Assembly: GCF_035084215.1 (NCBI RefSeq)
Contig: NC_090346.1
Span: forward strand, 14,198,001-14,262,000
Source: Heptranchias perlo
Lineage: Eukaryota
Length of the DNA: 64,000 nucleotides
Direction: 5' to 3'
This document shows positions 16,365 through 57,012 of the stretch, piece after piece. Under the pieces are notes generated by a model. That model saw only the letters and a list, made by a program, of their open reading frames with translations, ran no database searches and was not told where the DNA came from. The translations under genes were made by a program, and so were the position numbers. Within the stretch, counting starts at the first letter, position 1; each line of letters begins with the position of its first letter.

Positions 16365-17229
16365 TGTTCAAATCCCTCCATGGCCTCGTCCCTCCCTATC
16401 TCTCTAACCTGAGCAGCCCTACAACCCTCCGAGATCTCTGCATTCCTCCAATTCTGGCCTCTTGCATAGAATGTACAGCACAGAAACGGGCCATTCAGCC
16501 CAACAGGTCTATGCCAGCGTTTATACACCACACAAGCCTCCTCCCTCCCCTCTTCATCTTACCCTATCTGCATAACCTTATATTCCATTCTCCCCCATGC
16601 GTTTATTTTGCATCCCCTTAAATACATCAATGCTATTCCCCTCAACTACTCCTTGTGGTAACCATTCTCTGGGTAAAGAAGTTTCTCCTGAATTCCCTAT
16701 TGGATTTATTGGTGACTATCTTATATTTATGGTCCCTAGTTTTGGACACCTCCACAAATGGAAACATCTTCTCTGCGTCTATCCTATCACACCCCGTCAT
16801 AATTTTAAAGACTTCTATCGGGTTTCAGCCTTCTGTTTTCTAGAGAAATAGCCCCAGCCTGTTCAATCTTTACTGATAAGTACAACCTCCCAGTTCTGAT
16901 GTCATCCTTGTAAATCTTTTTTGCATCTTCTCCAGTGCCTCTTTATCCTTTTTATAACATGGAGACCAGAACTTGTGCATCCCCAATTTCCATCGCCCCA
17001 CCATTGGCGGCTGTGCCTTCAGCTGTCTAGACCCTAAGCTCTGGAATTCCCTCCCTAAACCTTTCTGTCTCTCCACCTCTCTCTCCTACGTTAAGACCAT
17101 CCTTAAAACCTACCTCTTTGACCAAGCTTTTGGTCATCTGTCTGAATATCTGCTCGTGTGACTCGGTGTCCAATATTGTCTGTTAATCGCCTTGGGATGT
17201 TTTACTGCGTTAAAGGCGCTATAGAAATG
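16365..17229 (+). mobile_element. L2 3' fragment interrupted by an antisense CR1 3' fragment (~16466-16972)
   Basis: L2 breaks at ggcctcttgcat and resumes at cttgtgcatcccc. Confidence 0.75.
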
Positions 17230-17230
17230 C

Positions 17231-17434
17231 AAATAAAAACAGAAAATGCTGGAAAAGCTCAGCAAGTCAGGCAGTATCTGTGGAGAAAGAAACAGAGTTA
17301 ACATTCTGACGAAAGGTCTTCGACCTGAAACATTAACTCTGTTCCTTTCTCCACAGATGCTGCCTCACTTGCTGAGCTTTTCCAAAATTTCTGTTTTTAT
17401 TTCAGATTTCCAGCATCCACAGTATTTTGCTTTT
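17231..17434 (+). mobile_element. Penelope-like pLTR fold-back insertion (subfamily C) with hammerhead motif
   Basis: Arms ~17231-17301 / ~17333-17402, ~32 nt unpaired tail, TSD gctatagaaatg at 17218-17229 and 17435-17446. Confidence 0.8.
17304..17337 (+). ncRNA. Minimal type I hammerhead ribozyme motif (stem III palindrome mutated)
   Basis: CTGACGA-A-AGGTC/TTC/GACCT-GAAA-CA-TT. Confidence 0.6.
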
Positions 17435-17557
17435 GCTATAGAAATGTAAGTTGTTGAGTCCAGCACAATCAATCAGCTTTTTTTTGTTTTGCATTTGTTG
17501 TTTTGAATTTGAAAAACAAAACTTGAGTCTCCACCTCCTGTTTACTGCCTCCCGCAG

Positions 17558-17748
17558 AGATGCGCCCGCAGTGGTTCGACCTGGACAAGGTCCCATTTGA
17601 CAAGATGTGGCCTGATGACATCATCTGGTTCCCCCTGATGCTTCAGGAGAAGAAGTTCAAGGGTCATTTCAAGTTCGAGGGACACGACACTATTCTGGAC
17701 TACACGCTGCAGGAAGTGGACGATCTGGCAGCTGATGAGGAGTCTTGA
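17558..17748 (+). CDS. NUDT1: NUDT1 last coding exon
   Basis: [47 protein letters not shown]..; cccgcag acceptor; TGA. Confidence 0.96.
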
Positions 17749-19515
17749 TTCTGACACATCACGCTCCGAAATACAGGCTGGAAGGGGAAAAGTTTAACAC
17801 ATTCGCCGCCTGCGGTTGTTGAAACACTGGGAATGTACGTTGTAGCAAAACTGTCATCAACGGCCGTTGCAATTTTCTTTTCTCTCAGTGGAAGAATTAA
17901 GTGCTGCTGGTATTTTTACTAATTTTTTTCGGACATTTAATAGGGGATTTAACCTAGAGTCGCCAACTCTGGTTGGACGTTGGAGGTTTCATCACATGTC
18001 CTTCTGCCTCCAACCACCCCACCCCCATACTCTTATCATCAGTCTCTCAACATATCCGTCCTCGAGGCCCACCGCAATCCCGCGCCAATTCATTACCCGA
18101 TTGGATAATTTTTGACCTGTTGTCAAATGGCCCTTTTCCCCATCTGGTACCCCAGTGTTACTGGATGTTGCCAATCTGATGAGCTCAGATTCTGTTTAAG
18201 TTGAACGATCCCATTTGCTGTAATATAAAATATCTTAGTTTAATTAAAACAAAAGTAGACTGTGATTTGTATCCATGGACACAATTAAATTTGTTTTCTC
18301 TTCTTTACATAACATTGATTTTTTTTGAAGGAGAAAGAAACTGCAAGTACATAAATTTTTATTTAAATTGAGCTACTTTCCCCCCTTGTCCCCTCCACAC
18401 AACCACTGGAAGTGCTGCTCTGGAACTGCACACTAGATGGTGCACAAGAGCAGCTGTGTGTCTGACTCCAGACCCAATGCCAGCAATCTCTCTCTTTTTA
18501 TTCTTCTGAAACTGTGCCAAGTCTTTGCTTAAAAACACAGGAGGCAGAAGTCAGCATGGAATGAGACTGTAAACCCAATCTTTATTATAATAATCTAGGA
18601 ATCTGTTGTGGTGTTCTTAAGGTGGCTCTCCTTGCATTAAACCCCAAATCTTATCATGATGATTTAGGACAGGTGGCGGGGCGGGGGGGGGTTAGTGACA
18701 GCAGAATTTCGAAGAGTAGAACAGAAACAGTATTTCAGTGACCACATGTACTGGTTCATTTCCTCTGTATCCTGTGTCTTTCTCAGGGTGACCGCACCGA
18801 GGAGACCAGAGTTTGATCTCAGCTCTCGAAAGGCATTTACATCTGAGCTTCCCGCAGGAAGTGAAATAAATCCGGCTGGGGGGAGAAGTAAATTTCCTGT
18901 ATCGGTGAAGTGCAGGCGCTGGCTGAATGACCGGAGACAGCCTCCTTGTCTCTGGACTCTCAATCCTCCAGAATGAATGAGGTAGTCTGCATACAGGGGA
19001 GGGAGGAAAGGGGAAGGAAAGCAGAAGAGATTAAAGTAGTTTGACCGCACTCTGGCACAGAGGGTCAAAACTGCAACTTGTGGTGATGAAGCAGGGCATG
19101 TGGGTTTGCAACCACAATCTCCCCACCCCCACCCCCACGTAATGTCCCCGGCCAGGGCATTAAACGCTCCCCCCACGCACGGAATAGCTGTGCCTTGGCC
19201 GTGATCTTGCAGTTCGTGTCGGTGAAGAGCCAGGTGCTCTCTTTGCCTTGGCTACTGGGGGGGGGGGGGGGGGGGAGGGGGGCGAGCCCTACCAGCAAAA
19301 AAAGAGAAAAATTGGGATTTACATTAAAAATAAATCAGTATTGCTGGAAAGAAAATGGTTCAGGCGTGTGTGTGATGCCTGCTATAGTGGAATAGTCCAC
19401 AGATGCTTGCCATCCAGGTGGCACGATTGACCATCTGGAAGAAGTGCTGGAGTTCTATTGGCCTATGGAACCATAGCACAACACCAGTCGGTGTCTTCAG
19501 GTCATATAATTTGAG

Positions 19516-19752
19516 TGTGGAGATGCCGGTGATGGACTGGGGTTGACAATTGTAAACAATTTTACAACACCAAGTTATAGTCCAGCAATTTTATTTTAAA
19601 TTCACAAGCTTTCGGAGATTTTCTCCTTCCTCAGGCAAATGTTTCAAGGAGCTCTTGAAACATTTGCCTGAGGAAGGAGAAAATCTCCGAAAGCTTGTGA
19701 ATTTAAAATAAAATTGCTGGACTATAACTTGGTGTTGTAAAATTGTTTACAA
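19516..19752 (-). mobile_element. Penelope-like pLTR fold-back insertion (subfamily A): perfect 99-bp-arm palindrome plus tail
   Basis: Arms 19550-19648 / 19654-19752; tail 19516-19549; TSD atataatttgag at 19504-19515 and 19753-19764. Confidence 0.88.
19662..19702 (+). ncRNA. Minimal type I hammerhead motif (mirror copy on - strand at ~19600-19640)
   Basis: ATTTGC-CTGAGGA-A-GGAGA/AAA/TCTCC-GAAA-GC-TT-GTGAAT; stem I ATTTGC pairs with GTGAAT. Confidence 0.72.
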
Positions 19753-20699
19753 ATATAATTTGAGGAGAGGGCAGTGGACTGGACCGCACTGCAAGGGTTT
19801 TGTTTACACACAATGTCCACGTTCCACACTTTGATGCATCGCTGATGTAAAATTACCAGTCAGCAGCCCACTTCACATCTGTTCAAAGCCAGATCCTAAA
19901 CTCACAGGACTGTTAAACTGTAGGGAGGAAAAAAAACAGAACAGAATTTCACCCCACCCCATGTGGTGCATTAGGAAAATCTGGGAGAAAGTAGACTGAC
20001 CATCAAATATATTTTCACGGTTACAGTAATAGAAGGTGTGATGATGGTGGGTACTTAAGACAGAATGTTTCACGTGGGACTCCATTTTATCCATAGTTCC
20101 TTCACAAAGGCGTTGGGGAGTTAGATTAGAATGAGCACCATCCATCATATTGTAATATGTATCAGACCTAGAGAGTAATCTCCTTAATTTCAAACATTCT
20201 CCTGAATGTACGGTCACATTAGACAGCAGAAAGACACGAAGTTCATAGAATTGATGAATTATAGAATGGTACAGCACAGGAGGCTGCCATTCGGCCCATC
20301 ATGCCTATGAAGACTCTTTGAAAGAGCTATTCAATTAGTCCCACTCCCCTGCTCTTTTCCCACAACCCTGCAAATTTTTCCTTTTCAAGTATTTATCCAA
20401 TTCCCTTTTGAAAGTTACTATTGAATCTGCTTCCACCGCCCTTTCAGGCGGTGCATTCCAGATCAACATAACTCACGCTTAAAAAAATTCTCCTCAGCTC
20501 CTCTGCTGATGGGGTTTTTTTTTTCTCCAGTCAGGGATTAATTTTGACATTTATCTTCCCCGAAATATTATAAAAAGCTGTGTTTCCGTCTGCAACTTAA
20601 ATAAGTTATTTAAAGGAGCTTCTCTGCTGCTTGCAGATCTGTTGCTCAGATACCACAAGCTGATAATTGTAGTTCTGATCGGAACTAAGTGTCAGTTCC

Positions 20700-21015
20700 T
20701 TTGCAACCTCCTCCACCCCTACAACTCTCCGAGAACTCTGTGTTCCTCCAATTCTCGTCTCTTGCACTTCCCTGATTTTCATCGCTCCACCATTGGTGGC
20801 CTTGTCTTTAGCAGCCTAGACCCTAAACTTCTCCGCCTCTCTACTTCCCTCCTCTCCTTAAGACGCTGCTTAAAACCAAGCTTTTTGGTCACCTGTCCTA
20901 ATATCTCATGAGGCTCGTGTCAAATTTTGTTTGATAATCGCTCTTGCGATATAGTGCCTTTAACGTTTTACTACGTTAAAGGCACTATATAAATGCAAGT
21001 TGTTGTTGTTGTTGA
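20700..21015 (+). mobile_element. L2 3' end
   Basis: Same family as 14430-14770; (gtt)n tail. Confidence 0.75.
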
Positions 21016-21589
21016 TGCCTGTGAACGTTTTGAAACTGTTGGGAGTACTGGTGCAGCCTCTACAATTAGCCCCCGTGTCCCCTCCTCCCCTCCCTATGGA
21101 TTTGGCGAAACAGCCAGGATTAAAGTTCCTGGGCACTGTTCGGTTAGCCCTGCTGAAACACGCTTATGTGGACATTTGAGTTAGGAGTGGGCTCAGTGGT
21201 GATGTCCAGTACAGTTAGCCAACCGACACTCTACCTGGGCTCAAACACACACAATTCCGAGGAGGTACTGAAGGGCTGTCGGTGGCTGAGGAACTGTACC
21301 CCATCACAAACCTGCACCTGGTTTTGGCGGGGGGGAAAGAAAAAGGGCAATTCCAAATATAAAAATTCCTGTATTTCCAGTACCCTAGAGGAAACATTCC
21401 CAATTTTTGTTGCGAGAAAGCCACCTGCTCAAGACGTTAGTAGACCATTCCCTCTTCCCCACGCACACAAAGATCCCTCTTCTGCCAACCTTCAAGTTCT
21501 TCAGGGATTGTGGCTCAGCATCTCGCTGATGACAACTTTTTGAAAAAACACACTGCTGGGAGTTTGGAGATTGGCAGCCAAGGATGTCT

Positions 21590-25717: not shown

Positions 25718-26396
25718 AAAGTTTCAGCCCCTCCGTGTTCACATTTTACAAGCTTCAGCCGTACATTTGAAAGCAAGACTTGCATTATGACCGCAGGGCA
25801 TCCCAAAGCACTTCACAGCCAATGAAATACTTTTGAAGTGTAGTCACTACTGTAATGTAGGAAATTTGGTTACATTCCAATGTACAGAACACTTGGATAA
25901 ACAAATAAAAAGAATCCTGGACAGAGAACTACTTGCATATGAAGAGGTAACTGGAGATTTTAACCCTTAAACCCCTCCTTCACAGACATGGTTTGAGGTA
26001 AGATTCAAACACTCTTCAGAAAATACTAAAAAGTATGATGGTAAATGATAGTGCCAGTAGCAATAATTACCAGGTTTAAAAATAAAGACAGCCCACGTGT
26101 TCCCTGCCTCCCTTGAATTCAGCGACAAGGACACTAGCCTCCTAACCCATGGCAAACTTAGGGCATTGGTCAACTTTTCCCTTCCAAATCGGGGGAGATT
26201 TGGAGGTCACAAGTTTGACCCGATTCAGAACCAGTTCAAAGAAAAAATAATTAATTAATTACAGTAGTGACTACACTTCAAAAGTATTTAATTGGCTGTG
26301 AAGTGCTTTGGGATGCCCTGCGGTCATAATGCAAGTCTTGCTTTCAAATGTACGGCTGAAGCTTGTAAAATGTGAACACGGAGGGGCTAAAACTTT
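25718..26396. repeat. 139-bp inverted repeat with ~400 bp spacer
   Basis: 25718-25856 is the reverse complement of 26258-26396 with 2 mismatches. Confidence 0.92.
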
Positions 26397-28686: not shown

Positions 28687-28812
28687 TCACTGCGGGAAAA
28701 AGGAGGTCGGACTCTGCCAATTCCCCGGCTGAGGGGACAGAGGGGGTGAGGGCATTCCGTTGGGCAGGAGGCCCCCCAGCTTCGGTTTTAAGTCATTCCA
28801 CACTTCACTCAT
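28687..28812 (-). CDS. SNX8: SNX8 sorting nexin-8 exon 13 (stop)
   Basis: MSEVWNDLKPKLGGLLPNGMPSPPLSPQ..FFPQ*. Confidence 0.92.
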   Translation of the reverse strand: MSEVWNDLKPKLGGLLPNGMPSPPLSPQPGNWQSPTSFFPQ

Positions 28813-48144: not shown

Positions 48145-48715
48145 TAATCTGCAGGAGACTGCCATGAAACAAAACTGCATTCCCGAAGTGTGATGGAAGT
48201 CAATGGCTTTACAGATAATAAATTGAATATATAGACAGATCATATAACAGCACTTAGACAACACATTTAGCATAGCAAAACATCCCATAGCATGTGGGGG
48301 GGGGGGGAAATGGAAGAAGAAAAAAAGAGGTAAGACATCAAGCACAATGCTTGTACCCAACTTCTAAGTATCTCTGTCATGCCTACAATTATCTGACCTC
48401 ACCTTCTTTTAAAAAGGGAAAAAAATAACATCTTTTCAGGTAAGGAAAGAATATAACAATAAGACACGAGATGTAATGACAATTTTAAGAGTGACAGCAA
48501 ATGTCAGCTTGGCTCAGTGGGTAGCACCCTCACCTCTGAGTCAGGCGGCCGTGGGTTCAAACCCCACTCCAGGACTTGAGCACAGAAATCTAGGCAGACA
48601 CTCCCGAGGGAGTGCTGCACTGTCAGAGATGCTGTCTTTTGGATGAGAAGTTAAACCAAGGCCCTGTCTGCCCTCTCAGGTGGATGTAAAAGATCCCACT
48701 GCATGATTTGAAGAG

Positions 48716-49631
48716 TAAGGAATCTTACAACACCAGGTTATAGTCCAACAAATTTATTTTAAAATCACAAGCTTTCGGAGGTTATCCCCTTCGTCAGATG
48801 AATGAGTGAAAAGGTTCTCAAATCGCACATCTTATACTATGCTGGGACAGCATCACACCAATCAAAAGGTGTCGTTGTTATTCAAACAGGCCAGTCACGG
48901 AGAACAGCACGTCCCAGTACACTGGATATACATTGTGTCAATTACACAGGCAGGCAGAAAGAAACCCAAAATGGCAGAGAGAGAGAATATTAAAAAACAT
49001 AATTTTTTTCCCCCTTTTTGCTGGTGGGGTTACGTGTAGCGTGACATGAACCCAAGATCCCGGTTGAGGCCGTCCTCATGGGTGCGGAACTTGGCTATCA
49101 ACTTCTGCTCGACGATTTTGCGTTGTCGTGTCTCTCTTCGGGTAAGCGTTCTCCAAGGCGGCCTTCGAGACACACGACAACGCAAAATCGTCGAGCAGAA
49201 GTTGATAGCCAAGTTCCGCACCCATGAGGACGGCCTCAACCGGGATCTTGGGTTCATGTCACGCTACACGTAACCCCACCAGCAAAAAGGGGGAAAAAAA
49301 TTATGTTTTTTAATATTCTCTCTCTCTCTCTCTGCCATTTTGGGTTTCTTTCTGCCTGCCTGTGTAATTGACACAATGTATATCCAGTGTACTGGGACGT
49401 GCTGTTCTCCGTGACTGGCCTGTTTGAATAACAACGACACCTTTTGATTGGTGTGATGCTGTCCCAGCATAGTATAAGATATGCGATTTGAGAACCTTTT
49501 CACTCATTCATCTGACGAAGGGGATAACCTCCGAAAGCTTGTGATTTTAAAATAAATTTGTTGGACTATAACCTGGTGTTGTAAGATTCCTTACATTTGT
49601 CCACCCCAGTCCATCACCGGCATCTCCACAT
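48716..49631 (+). mobile_element. Penelope-like element 3' fragment (GIY-YIG C-terminus plus pLTR) with inverted self-copy (subfamily B), inserted in a Deu-SINE
   Basis: Arms ~48715-49131 / ~49172-49594; LRVSVLQGGLRDTRQRKIVEQKLIAKFRTHEDGLNRDLGFM; tail 49595-49631; TSD catgatttgaagag at 48702-48715 and 49632-49645. Confidence 0.9.
49508..49544 (+). ncRNA. Minimal type I hammerhead motif (mirror copy on - strand at 48765-48801)
   Basis: TCAT-CTGACGA-A-GGGG/ATAAC/CTCC-GAAA-GC-TT-GTGA. Confidence 0.75.
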
Positions 49632-50176: not shown

Positions 50177-50386
50177 CAAAAGCAAAATACTGCGGATGCT
50201 GGAAATCAGAAATAAAAACAGAAAATGCAGGAGAAGCTCAGCAAGTCAGGCAGCATCTGTGGAGAAGGAATTGACATCTTTTAACATCTTCCAGTTCTGA
50301 CGAAAGTTCTTCGACCTGAAACGTTAACTCTGTTTCTTTCTCCACAGATGCTGCCTGACTTGCTGAGCTTCTCCAGCATTTTCTGC
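50177..50386. mobile_element. Penelope-like pLTR fold-back insertion (subfamily C)
   Basis: Tail on the left (reverse complement of the 17403-17434 tail), inverted arms, TSD atatat(a/g)gagatt at 50164-50176 and 50387-50399. Confidence 0.8.
50293..50329 (+). ncRNA. Minimal type I hammerhead motif
   Basis: AGTT-CTGACGA-A-AGTTC/TTC/GACCT-GAAA-CG-TT-AACT; stem I AGTT/AACT; one stem II mismatch. Confidence 0.68.
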
Positions 50387-51106
50387 ATATATGGAGATTG
50401 ATTACTATGTTTAGTCAACCAGTCCATTATCGTTGTATTACGCGACTACCAGGATAGTAGAAAGCGAACTACATGAACCTTGGGTTTTTTTGGTCCAGTA
50501 ATTCCTATGTTCCAATAATAGGTCTATAAACCGTGTTAAATGGTGTATAGGACACGTTATATAAGATGTAAATATAAAATGCACAAAGCGGACAGCGCAA
50601 AGCCCTCGGGAACAAGTTTCCTTTGGACAATTTTCTCACCTCGGGGTTTCGTGTAACTTTGTTGCCTTTTCAACACCGCTACTTTCTGGAGCCGCACCGA
50701 CTGCCACGTTAATGGGAACTCCGGTCAATGGGGGAGTGATGGCGGGGATTACCCCCGGTTAGTAGGGGACTCCCAGCTCACTGGGGGGGGGGGGGAGGGA
50801 GAGTGCAGAGACCGTGGGTGGGGAGAGGAGGTGGGGGGACCCTTGGGTAGAAGTTGGGTCTCCAGCTCGAAGCCCGGCTCCTCACAGCCCCCTCCCTCCC
50901 TCCCTTCCCCTCCTCTCCTCTCCTCTCTCTCGGGTATTTTCATTCATCCCACAGCTCGGTGTAAAAGTGACTCCCCCCCCCCACCCCCGGCGGGAATGAG
51001 AGATTTTTTTCAGCACAAAACCCTCAACTTTAGTTCTTAAAAGTTAGGGAGGAAAATAAAAACTTTTTTTCTCCATGAAGAACAAACTTTTAATTTTCCC
51101 TCTTAC

Positions 51107-51129: not shown

Positions 51130-52309
51130 TCCGAATCATGTGAGCTCCGGAGCTGCCATGTGATTTCCTCAATAATAAACAGAAGGAAAATAAATAAATA
51201 TCTTTTTGAAATTCTTCCCCCTGTCCCCGGTTGAAACAACAAACTTATTTTTGAGATTTTGTAAAGTTTTTCTTCGATGAGCTTTTCATTATTTTAAAGA
51301 CCCTGTGAAATATTTTCTTTTCTCTCTCTGCCGACGTTTTCACCTCCTCGATTTTTTTTGCCCGCAAAGTATCGGCCCCACGGCGCATGCGCCCCCTGCA
51401 GGTATCGCCTCCGATACCGATCAGCGAGATGGCGAGGAATCGATTGGCCCGCGCGGACCGACTGAAACCCGCGCGGAGTTGACACCGAACATGATCTTCG
51501 TGGGCGCGCCATGCATTTAACGTGACTTTATTGGGATTCTTTTGTTTTATAATTGTCCGGTTTGCAGTAATCGTTTCTTACTTTTATTAAATATCAACAG
51601 TTGATTTATAGTTCGCAGTTACTATTACATTTCTTATTAAATATTAAACAATTTATTTTACAATTGTAAACAATTTTACAACACCAAGTTATAGTCCAGC
51701 AATTTATTTTACAGTTAGTGACAGTTACTACTGCGTTTCAACTTTCTGCACCGAGTATTGAAGTAATCGTTTCAAAGTTTCCAAACTCAACAGGGTGTTT
51801 AATTTGTTGAATGCTACTTTTTTTTTTGAAAAAAAATAACTAAGATCCAAAACAGTCAGGAACAGTCCCAGAGGCCGCATCCTGTTAAAAAGGCGCACTG
51901 TCTGTCACTGAGGGGCAAGAACAAAGCTGTGTTCCCGGCTGCACCATCTGCCAGATGTGAGACTGTTGTTAGGGATTGTCACGTTTGCCTTTCTATTAAT
52001 TTTCACTCTGTCTCGTTCCCTCACTTTTACACATTTCTTAGTCAATTCTGCACTTGTTGCTCAACCACACTTCTCTATTTTATTCTCTTTAATGCACTAA
52101 TTCTCACTCATTAGCTCACACTCACTTAATAGCTCACACTCACTCACGCATTGCCTCACTTGCTCAGTCACACACACTCACTCCGGGTACGCTGTCTGTC
52201 GGCCAGCGGTGTTGTGACTCCCTCCCGTTGCTATAGCCCCGCCGTCAAACACCGGGAGCCGCAGCCAGGCCGCTGGACCCCGGGCCCGGGTAACCCTCGA
52301 GGTGCAGAG
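51130..52309. promoter_or_regulatory. Divergent promoter region SNX8(-)/IQCE(+)
   Basis: Two CpG clusters; NRF1 palindrome GCGCATGCGC 51383-51392 overlapping CTCF-like CCTGCAGGGGGCGC (-); reverse CCAAT ~51443; X-box-like GTTGCTATAGCCCC 52227-52240. Confidence 0.7.
51663..51699 (-). mobile_element. 37-bp tail-less Penelope pLTR fragment (subfamily A)
   Basis: Identical to the arm ends at ~19550 and ~56852; flanked by direct repeat caatttattttaca (51649-51662, 51700-51713). Confidence 0.8.
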
Positions 52310-56330: not shown

Positions 56331-56851
56331 GCACCTTCTGAAAGATATTGTCAGTTGCCCAAAGGGAAACAATTGTTATCATTGCAGAAAACATTTTTCA
56401 CTGGTATAGGACATAAATATCGTGTTAGTCAAAAAATGCAGAAAAAAGTATGAAATACAGGATTCTCAAGATGGTGTGCTTGCGGCATGTGGTAAGATAG
56501 GGCCCAGGTGGCCAGGGTGCAATCTAATGACATTGCGTGGGATCTCCTCACTCTCCCCGCCCCAGGCCCCAGCATCAACACCTGTGCCTTAACATGACCC
56601 ACAGCAGCAGGTCAGTACTGAAAGTAAGTGGGGTGGCTTGGCTGGTTTGAGCAGTGCTAATTGCGAACATAACCGGGGTAACTACCAGAGAGTCACCCTA
56701 AAGTTTCAGAAGCTTCGAAGGGTACAAATCAGAATTTTAAAAAAGAAAGTCTTGCATTTATATAGCACCTTTCACAACCTCAGGACATTCCAAAGCGCTT
56801 TACAGCCAATGAAGTACTTTTTGAAGTGTAGTCACTGTTGTGATGTAGAAA

Positions 56852-57012
56852 ATTGTAAACAATTTTACAACACCAAGTTATAGTCCAGCAATTTTATTTT
56901 ATTTTACAAAATAAAATTTTATTTTACAAAAATAAAATTGCTGGACTATAACTTGGTGTTGTAAAATTGTTTACAATTGTCAACCCCAGTCCATCACCGG
57001 CATCTCCACATC
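56852..57012 (+). mobile_element. Short Penelope pLTR fold-back insertion (subfamily A, no ribozyme) inside a Deu-SINE
   Basis: ~50-bp arms, AT-rich reiterated centre, tail gtcaaccccagtccatcaccggcatctccacatc; TSD gtgatgtagaaa at 56840-56851 and 57013-57024. Confidence 0.87.

Follow-up and report, generated by a model that had tools for sequence, protein, structure and literature searches.

The 64,000-nucleotide stretch of the Heptranchias perlo genome analysed here (contig NC_090346.1, positions 14,198,001 to 14,262,000; hereafter the window) contains a perfect palindrome with a hammerhead ribozyme motif on each strand, and the question that it raises is whether this is a ribozyme at work between two genes or the scar of a mobile element. 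We conclude with high confidence that it is a 237-bp head-to-head insertion of two 5'-truncated pLTRs of a high-copy Penelope-like element (PLE), a retrotransposon, with a 12-bp target-site duplication (TSD), likely produced in one recent event, and that its hammerheads are passengers predicted to be locked in the hairpin. Identity of the pLTR to intact RT-encoding elements, the TSD, a one-sided tail and the copy number are direct observations, while the mechanism of insertion is read from genomic scars.

True extent of the palindromic insertion

The palindrome is exact, as an earlier note on this DNA had described: its two arms (19550-19648 and 19654-19752) count 99 nt each, are 100% complementary, and are separated by a 5-nt loop (19649-19653). 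The boundaries proposed in that note, 19600-19702, enclose the two hammerhead motifs only, whereas the palindrome covers 19550-19752 and the whole insertion 19516-19752, i.e. 237 bp in which an unpaired tail of 34 nt precedes the left arm, loop, and right arm. The tail had been missed, as had the TSD, an identical 12-mer at 19504-19515 and 19753-19764.

The left arm (19550-19648) is a 5'-truncated pLTR with its sense on the minus strand, and runs on into the tail (19516-19549, also minus), which corresponds to the parent's stretch between the pLTR end and the start codon of the ORF, and matches the sequence just 5' of the ATG in a full-length copy of the element (L032). The right arm (19654-19752) is a 5'-truncated pLTR with its sense on the plus strand which, by comparison with other pLTR copies, ends at the pLTR end without any tail. 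The junction between them (19643-19659, plus strand) is a natural stem-loop of the pLTR, with a 6-bp stem and a 5-nt loop, and is equally present in the intact copy L032. The two arms overlap by this 6-nt stem, and the sense of the loop is that of the untailed arm. Positions along the pLTR are given below as q numbers, q1 being the first base of an arm beside the loop, q43/44 the predicted cut, q99 the arm end, and q133 the tail end. DNA contigs of run X1 span both junctions of the insertion (19290-19539 and 19732-20200), so that it is not an assembly artefact.

Two other kinds of element were considered and rejected. A MITE or foldback DNA transposon has symmetric TIRs and fixed ends, whereas here one end carries an unpaired tail and the ends vary among copies with the same centre. 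A non-LTR retrozyme consists of head-to-tail tandem units with sense hammerheads, whereas here we find a single head-to-head unit.

A high-copy Penelope-like parent

The left arm and tail are together 100% identical over 132 nt to the pLTR of two loci, L031 and L032, which means zero divergence from intact elements. Both loci hold tandem units of about 3.08 kb (pLTR repeats about 3,081 bp apart) with open frames of 918 codons between them; L032 has three pLTR copies at this spacing with ORFs in between, which is the tandem pLTR layout of a PLE. An RVT_1 domain is present in all three parent frames scanned (E 3e-10), the ORF itself being no part of the stub at our locus, and comparison with PDB gave an RT match at E 0.86 only. 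A Pfam scan of the parent ORF gave no GIY-YIG domain at E up to 1. Near its C-terminus, residues 806-823 contain a VVY...YIG motif, and an atlas look-alike of the ORF (score 0.96) belongs to a cluster with 31% GIY-YIG members, which we regard as a lead only. Among Penelope/Poseidon, Neptune, and Naiad, the order of RT before EN and the presence of a hammerhead in the pLTR argue against Naiad only. At L031 (G000:C1:4434500-4443500) the tandem full-length units meet head-to-head with an opposite-strand full-length unit, at a junction inside the tail (q97) that results in open frames of 918 and 950 codons.

The family is very abundant. A 32-mer running from the hammerhead core to stem I' has 9,199 exact copies in the 3.25-Gb genome, and a generic hammerhead motif has 84,489 (about 26 per Mb), the reversed control giving 0 in both cases. 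The first 100 listed matches of the 32-mer include 30 head-to-head neighbour pairs within 6 kb (60 of the 100 copies), 17 of them within 200 bp, as opposed to a single tail-to-tail pair. A rough extrapolation from these 17 per 100 listed matches to the 9,199 copies suggests that the genome contains about 1,500 short palindromes from this subfamily. Three of the 17 short pairs look like one segmental repeat; the palindromes at G000:C1:15341335, 15356703, and 15372121 have the same 65-nt spacing, lie about 15.4 kb apart, and probably represent one insertion in a tandem segmental repeat (the first one was examined). The exact centre of our palindrome is found at ten loci, nine of which are clean, with different flanks and TSDs of 12-13 bp, and one complex.

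The window itself contains at least three more such insertions, at 48715-49629, at 56845-57012 and, from a related family, at 17224-17410. The one at 56845-57012 belongs to the same subfamily as our palindrome and is again head-to-head; truncation at q51/52 leaves it without hammerhead, and it has a 12-bp TSD, its tail on the right arm, and another repeat as host site. The one at 48715-49629 is a larger head-to-head insertion of a sister subfamily, with near-perfect arms of about 430 bp that run into the 3' end of the ORF, and with hammerheads at 48773-48797 (minus) and 49512-49536 (plus). The elements at 17224-17410, which sits in the last NUDT1 intron, and at 50190-50392 are older, diverged hairpins of another family, each with a single central hammerhead-like core (17306-17330 and 50297-50321, respectively). 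At 51657-51711, a short stretch of the same pLTR (about q51-106) occurs alone and has no hammerhead.

The hammerhead motifs and the hairpin that contains them

The plus-strand motif (19662-19702) consists of stem I (19662-19667), CUGAGGA (19668-19674), an extra A (19675), stem II (19676-19688), GAAA (19689-19692), GC, UU, and stem I' (19697-19702), with the predicted cut after 19696. Its mirror on the minus strand occupies 19640-19600, with the predicted cut between 19606 and 19605. All the parts listed in the earlier note are present on both strands, and its predicted cut after C19694-U19695-U19696 is in the right place. The traits that the available text of PMC4209133 lists for the minimal type I hammerhead of PLEs can be read directly at 19668-19696: the CUGANGA and GAAA core, the extra base before stem II, G10.1-C11.1, and a stem III reduced to the palindrome AGCU, as had been proposed.

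In RNAfold, a motif taken alone forms stems I and II with an energy of -8.7 kcal/mol, a stability no better than that of shuffled sequences (z -0.59). Covariation was read from 24 distinct variants (20 loci chosen for variety, plus the window), which were selected on the core and are mutually related, so that it is supportive only. Pairs 1-4 of stem II are standard in 95/96 cells, pair 3 appearing as A-U, G-U, or G-C, while the innermost pair 5 is standard in 17 variants; pairs 1-4 of stem I are standard in 93/96 cells, with a few two-sided changes. This suggests that the structure is kept at the level of the family, and says nothing on the copy at 19516-19752.

The covariance-model search that had been put forward as a check gave no hammerhead. 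In the 64-kb window no Rfam family reached its gathering score, and none of the 39 matches obtained at E up to 10 over 16500-21500 was to a hammerhead model; these matches were to generic hairpin (miRNA) models, all below gathering scores. Such a result is unsurprising because the motif has no intramolecular stem III. The generic hammerhead motif is also not above chance in the 64-kb window, with 11 occurrences against a shuffle mean of 7.1, a count reached by 9 of 100 shuffles.

Folding predictions strongly favour the hairpin over the ribozyme. The full hairpin has a computed energy of -179.5 kcal/mol against -108.0 for a fold forced to contain the hammerhead (about 71 kcal/mol in favour of the hairpin), and the predicted probability of stem II pairs is about 4e-15, in agreement with the earlier suggestion of a ribozyme silenced by its own antisense arm. 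The arms are oriented outwards, so that transcription from either side would produce the antisense arm ahead of the sense ribozyme and close the 99-bp duplex. The two motifs being on opposite strands, read-through from either gene would contain one sense ribozyme inside a long hairpin, as had been stated, with no dimer partner in cis. Dimer cleavage of minimal hammerheads was reportedly described by Lunse et al. On these predictions no cleavage is expected at the locus, which would be at most a passive dsRNA substrate; a self-cleaving terminator is unlikely, and a source of dsRNA is possible if read-through crosses the whole hairpin.

Gene context, transcription, and a likely empty allele

The insertion had been placed between the 3' ends of NUDT1 and SNX8, which holds well for the first gene and less so for the second. 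The last coding exon of NUDT1/MTH1 (17556-17748, plus strand; PDB MTH1 at E 1e-25) has its stop at 17746-17748, about 1.8 kb upstream of the insertion. An RNA-type contig, apparently spliced, continues from NUDT1 to at least 19248, and a candidate poly(A) signal (AATAAA) is present at 19329, so that the insertion probably lies just past the NUDT1 3' end. The last coding exon of a convergent gene is at 28687-28812 on the minus strand, with its stop (28689-28687) about 8.9 kb from the insertion. We call this gene SNX8-like, an identity that the sequence supports weakly: scanning of six frames gave one Snx8_BAR match, in one exon, at E 0.045, the BAR-like atlas leads for the exons all score under 0.9, and the exon scan against PDB gave no useful match. 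An inverted repeat of 139 nt (25718-25856 and 26258-26396; 99% complementary, 401 nt apart) lies between the insertion and the SNX8-like stop.

Four sequencing runs (X5-X8; one sample, one study) are presumed to be RNA, no run being recorded as such. Contigs of two of them, X5 and X7, span the right junction of the insertion, which, provided that these runs are RNA, indicates transcription of part of the filled allele. Positions 19318-19454 have no cover in any of the four; such gaps are uninformative, and speak neither way as to read-through across the hairpin.

Run X6 likely contains the empty site. A contig of 579 letters with a depth of 5.13 aligns to 19753-20200 from its letter 31 onwards, and the depths of X6 in bins 19445-19475 (0.17) and 19476-19506 (4.63) correspond to 1/31 and 28/31 of this depth, or 29 letters placed at 19475-19503. 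The contig would thus skip 249 bp, a reading obtained from depth arithmetic, as the joint is not among the alignment rows shown. Against an empty allele, a 1-nt deletion linked to the X6 contig is seen in neither DNA run. Run X10, from another organism (organism C), contributed a single match of 33 letters to the region, and showed no orthologous empty site. Over 17948-21328, several positions of the assembly read differently in the RNA-type contigs of sample S1 (e.g. 17948, 18063, and 18430, as well as 9 nt deleted at 19123), which points to a second haplotype, possibly in phase with an empty allele. Zero divergence from intact elements and the likely empty allele together indicate a young insertion, probably heterozygous (polymorphic), which is the best reading of the locus.

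Anatomy of the family and a model of two-ended priming

We assembled 84 complete clusters of the family from picked loci, a non-random set made of the first matches on one contig and of ten junction-selected loci, in which 40-nt grouping split some pairs into singles. Half of them (42/84) are head-to-head, and among these 42 an apparent TSD of 11-14 bp is seen in 41, its length being 12 bp in 23. In 39 of the 42, a short end (q93-108) is paired with a tailed end (q132-146), and none has two short ends; of the remaining three, one is a complex tandem, one pairs q140 with q125, and one partially matches another subfamily. With two clusters left out, 39 of 40 pairs are mixed, which has a chance of 4e-11 if ends were independent. 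The loop reads with the tailed arm in five of the nine clean loci that share our palindrome centre and with the short arm in four, among which the insertion at 19516-19752.

Arms vary continuously in length, the longest reaching 2.5 kb and running into the ORF. Both arms stop within 20 nt of each other in 5/12 long events (shuffle mean 0.48, p 1e-5), suggesting a shared template end, while in the other seven they differ by 90-1,760 nt. A TATAAA box lies 25 nt upstream of the arm start (q-25), and numerous arms start shortly after it, most short ones upstream of q1 or no more than about 16 nt past it. Of the 52 arms in an 800-kb sample, 49 have their start at q16 or earlier, one at q17, and the other two at q46. 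Over all loci, 11 of 195 distinct arms begin within q18-72, three inside the hammerhead, six at q44-55 just past the predicted cut, and two later. The clustering of six of these 11 internal starts has a p of 0.018, to be read with caution as the bin was chosen after looking, two of the arms come from one event, and the region is AT-rich. These starts may be the footprint of hammerhead-cleaved templates, or else of the AT-rich stretch, and represent a weak lead.

The pairing of short and tailed ends, the occurrence of both loop orientations, and the matched truncations best fit two cDNAs primed from both target strands, as read from insertion scars. In such a scenario, the endonuclease of the element would cut the two target strands 12 bp apart, and each target 3' end would prime one cDNA, one at the pLTR end and the other about 35 nt further down, which would leave the tail. 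Synthesis of both cDNAs would continue until close to the RNA 5' end, which is probably a transcription start set by the promoter, a short way upstream of the hammerhead, and may determine the usual length of about 100 bp per arm; the cDNAs would then anneal via the 6-nt stem of the natural pLTR hairpin before fill-in. In L1 twin priming, both target strands likewise prime cDNA, and the products are joined by microhomology to give an inversion; L1 inversions join mostly non-overlapping parts of one RNA, whereas both arms here copy the same stretch.

Extended to PLEs in general, the model would have an RT dimer reverse-transcribe one and the same part of the RNA from both cut strands, with start sites about 35 nt apart, and stop at the RNA 5' end, usually the transcription start of the pLTR and sometimes the hammerhead cut. 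We put this forward tentatively, at somewhat less than even confidence. If true, two-ended priming alone would explain the one-sided tail, the head-to-head palindromes, and the matched truncations, and the arm starts at q44-55 would be a genomic footprint of hammerhead cleavage in vivo.

Alternative explanations

The same element could also have produced the palindrome by self-priming, one strand folding back at the natural stem-loop and copying itself, as argued in the available text of PMC3846280 for PLE palindromes (with an antisense template). This would account well for a junction lying exactly on the natural 6-bp hairpin, for other hot junctions that also overlap by 2-3 nt at micro-palindromes, and for the matched arm ends of five long events. 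It is less easily reconciled with the orientation of the loop, since a single first strand begun at q99 and folded back cannot supply the tail of the other arm, which would be left without template at our locus as in the other clean loci where the loop reads with the short arm; this favours two cDNAs, unless the loop was later flipped via recombination between the arms, which could rescue self-priming. The seven long events with unmatched arms speak against it, and also count against the two-cDNA model, as one shared template end does not explain them. On balance we consider self-priming unlikely. Far less probable is that the hairpin is mobile in its own right, as a MITE-like or retrozyme-like unit copying itself as a palindrome. 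Ten loci with the exact same centre might suggest it, as might the recurrence of several other centre types, such as that with 44-nt spacing in five of the 17 short pairs; but the outer ends vary among same-centre loci (short at q93-108, tailed at q133-146), the loop switches orientation with respect to the tail, arm lengths are continuous up into the ORF, and no head-to-tail array is present here.

Finally, the palindrome could have acquired, by co-option, a regulatory role between the convergent genes NUDT1 and SNX8-like, as a self-cleaving terminator or a source of small RNAs, in line with what the earlier note had envisaged. The element lies about 270 nt past the end of the RNA-type NUDT1 contig and about 170 nt past the candidate poly(A) signal, where read-through is to be expected, two of the four RNA-type runs have contigs across its right junction, and edited Penelope dsRNA is reported for a lizard in the available text of PMC5625713. 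This role finds little room in our data: the insertion is one of thousands of young copies, identical to intact elements and probably missing from one of the alleles, each strand offers a single sense ribozyme, in a hairpin that is greatly favoured, and at such a genome-wide density of hammerhead motifs one near a gene end is expected. Moreover, single minimal hammerheads are described in the available text of PMC4209133 as without detectable cleavage and their dimers as of low activity, and the anole ribozyme needed its protein according to that of PMC11167929. We therefore give hardly any credence to co-option, and keep to a young PLE insertion, most plausibly made of two cDNAs.

Comparison with known Penelope-like elements

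Insertions of EN+ PLEs are described, in the available parts of PMC8557442 and PMC3846280, as having an inverted 5'-truncated copy, a one-sided tail of 30-40 bp, and a short TSD. Ours closely resembles Pen2a_Av (PMC3846280) and the elements in the legend of Fig. 2 of PMC8557442, as far as the available text of both goes, in its head-to-head inverted 5'-truncated copy, its one-sided tail (34 nt here), its short TSD, the palindrome at the inversion junction, and a TATA-like box in the pLTR. It differs from them in that both halves are reduced to about 100-130 nt with no ORF left, in the thousands of copies of the family, and in a TSD of 12 bp as compared with 8-10 bp in the rotifer examples.

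The motif shares with the minimal PLE hammerhead of PMC4209133 (available text) the CUGANGA/GAAA core, the extra nucleotide before stem II, G10.1-C11.1, and palindromic residues in place of stem III. According to the same text, Schistosoma has dual hammerhead motifs on opposite strands, 100-700 bp apart, whereas the motifs here are about 20 nt apart inside a perfect hairpin, with CUU as predicted cleavage triplet. The protein of PAc, the Poseidon element of Anolis carolinensis, cuts and extends both target strands, and two RT start sites bracket the tail (PMC11167929, available text). Judging from its sequence, the family studied here would resemble PAc in having two RT start sites around the tail, AT-rich targets, and a hammerhead in the pLTR; the PAc ORF starts inside the hammerhead, whereas here the ATG is about 90 nt downstream of the cut site.

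Both the layout of inverted pLTR plus tail and the ribozyme type are thus already published, as far as these sources go, and the locus is an ordinary insertion of a known sort. A literature search, with most subscription papers outside its coverage, returned no work by title on Penelope twin priming with inverted copies and a TSD, which is no proof that the idea is unpublished.

Implications for the origin of inverted Penelope-like insertions

The locus itself matters little, as one young copy of a very common element. The family sample bears on how the inverted structures and tails of PLEs arise, an origin called undefined in the available text of PMC8557442, and the asymmetry of short and tailed ends, combined with the two loop orientations, offers a cheap genome-wide test of self-priming versus two-ended priming. 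If the insertion is heterozygous, it would also provide a natural allele-specific test of the effect of the hairpin on termination or RNA editing downstream of NUDT1.
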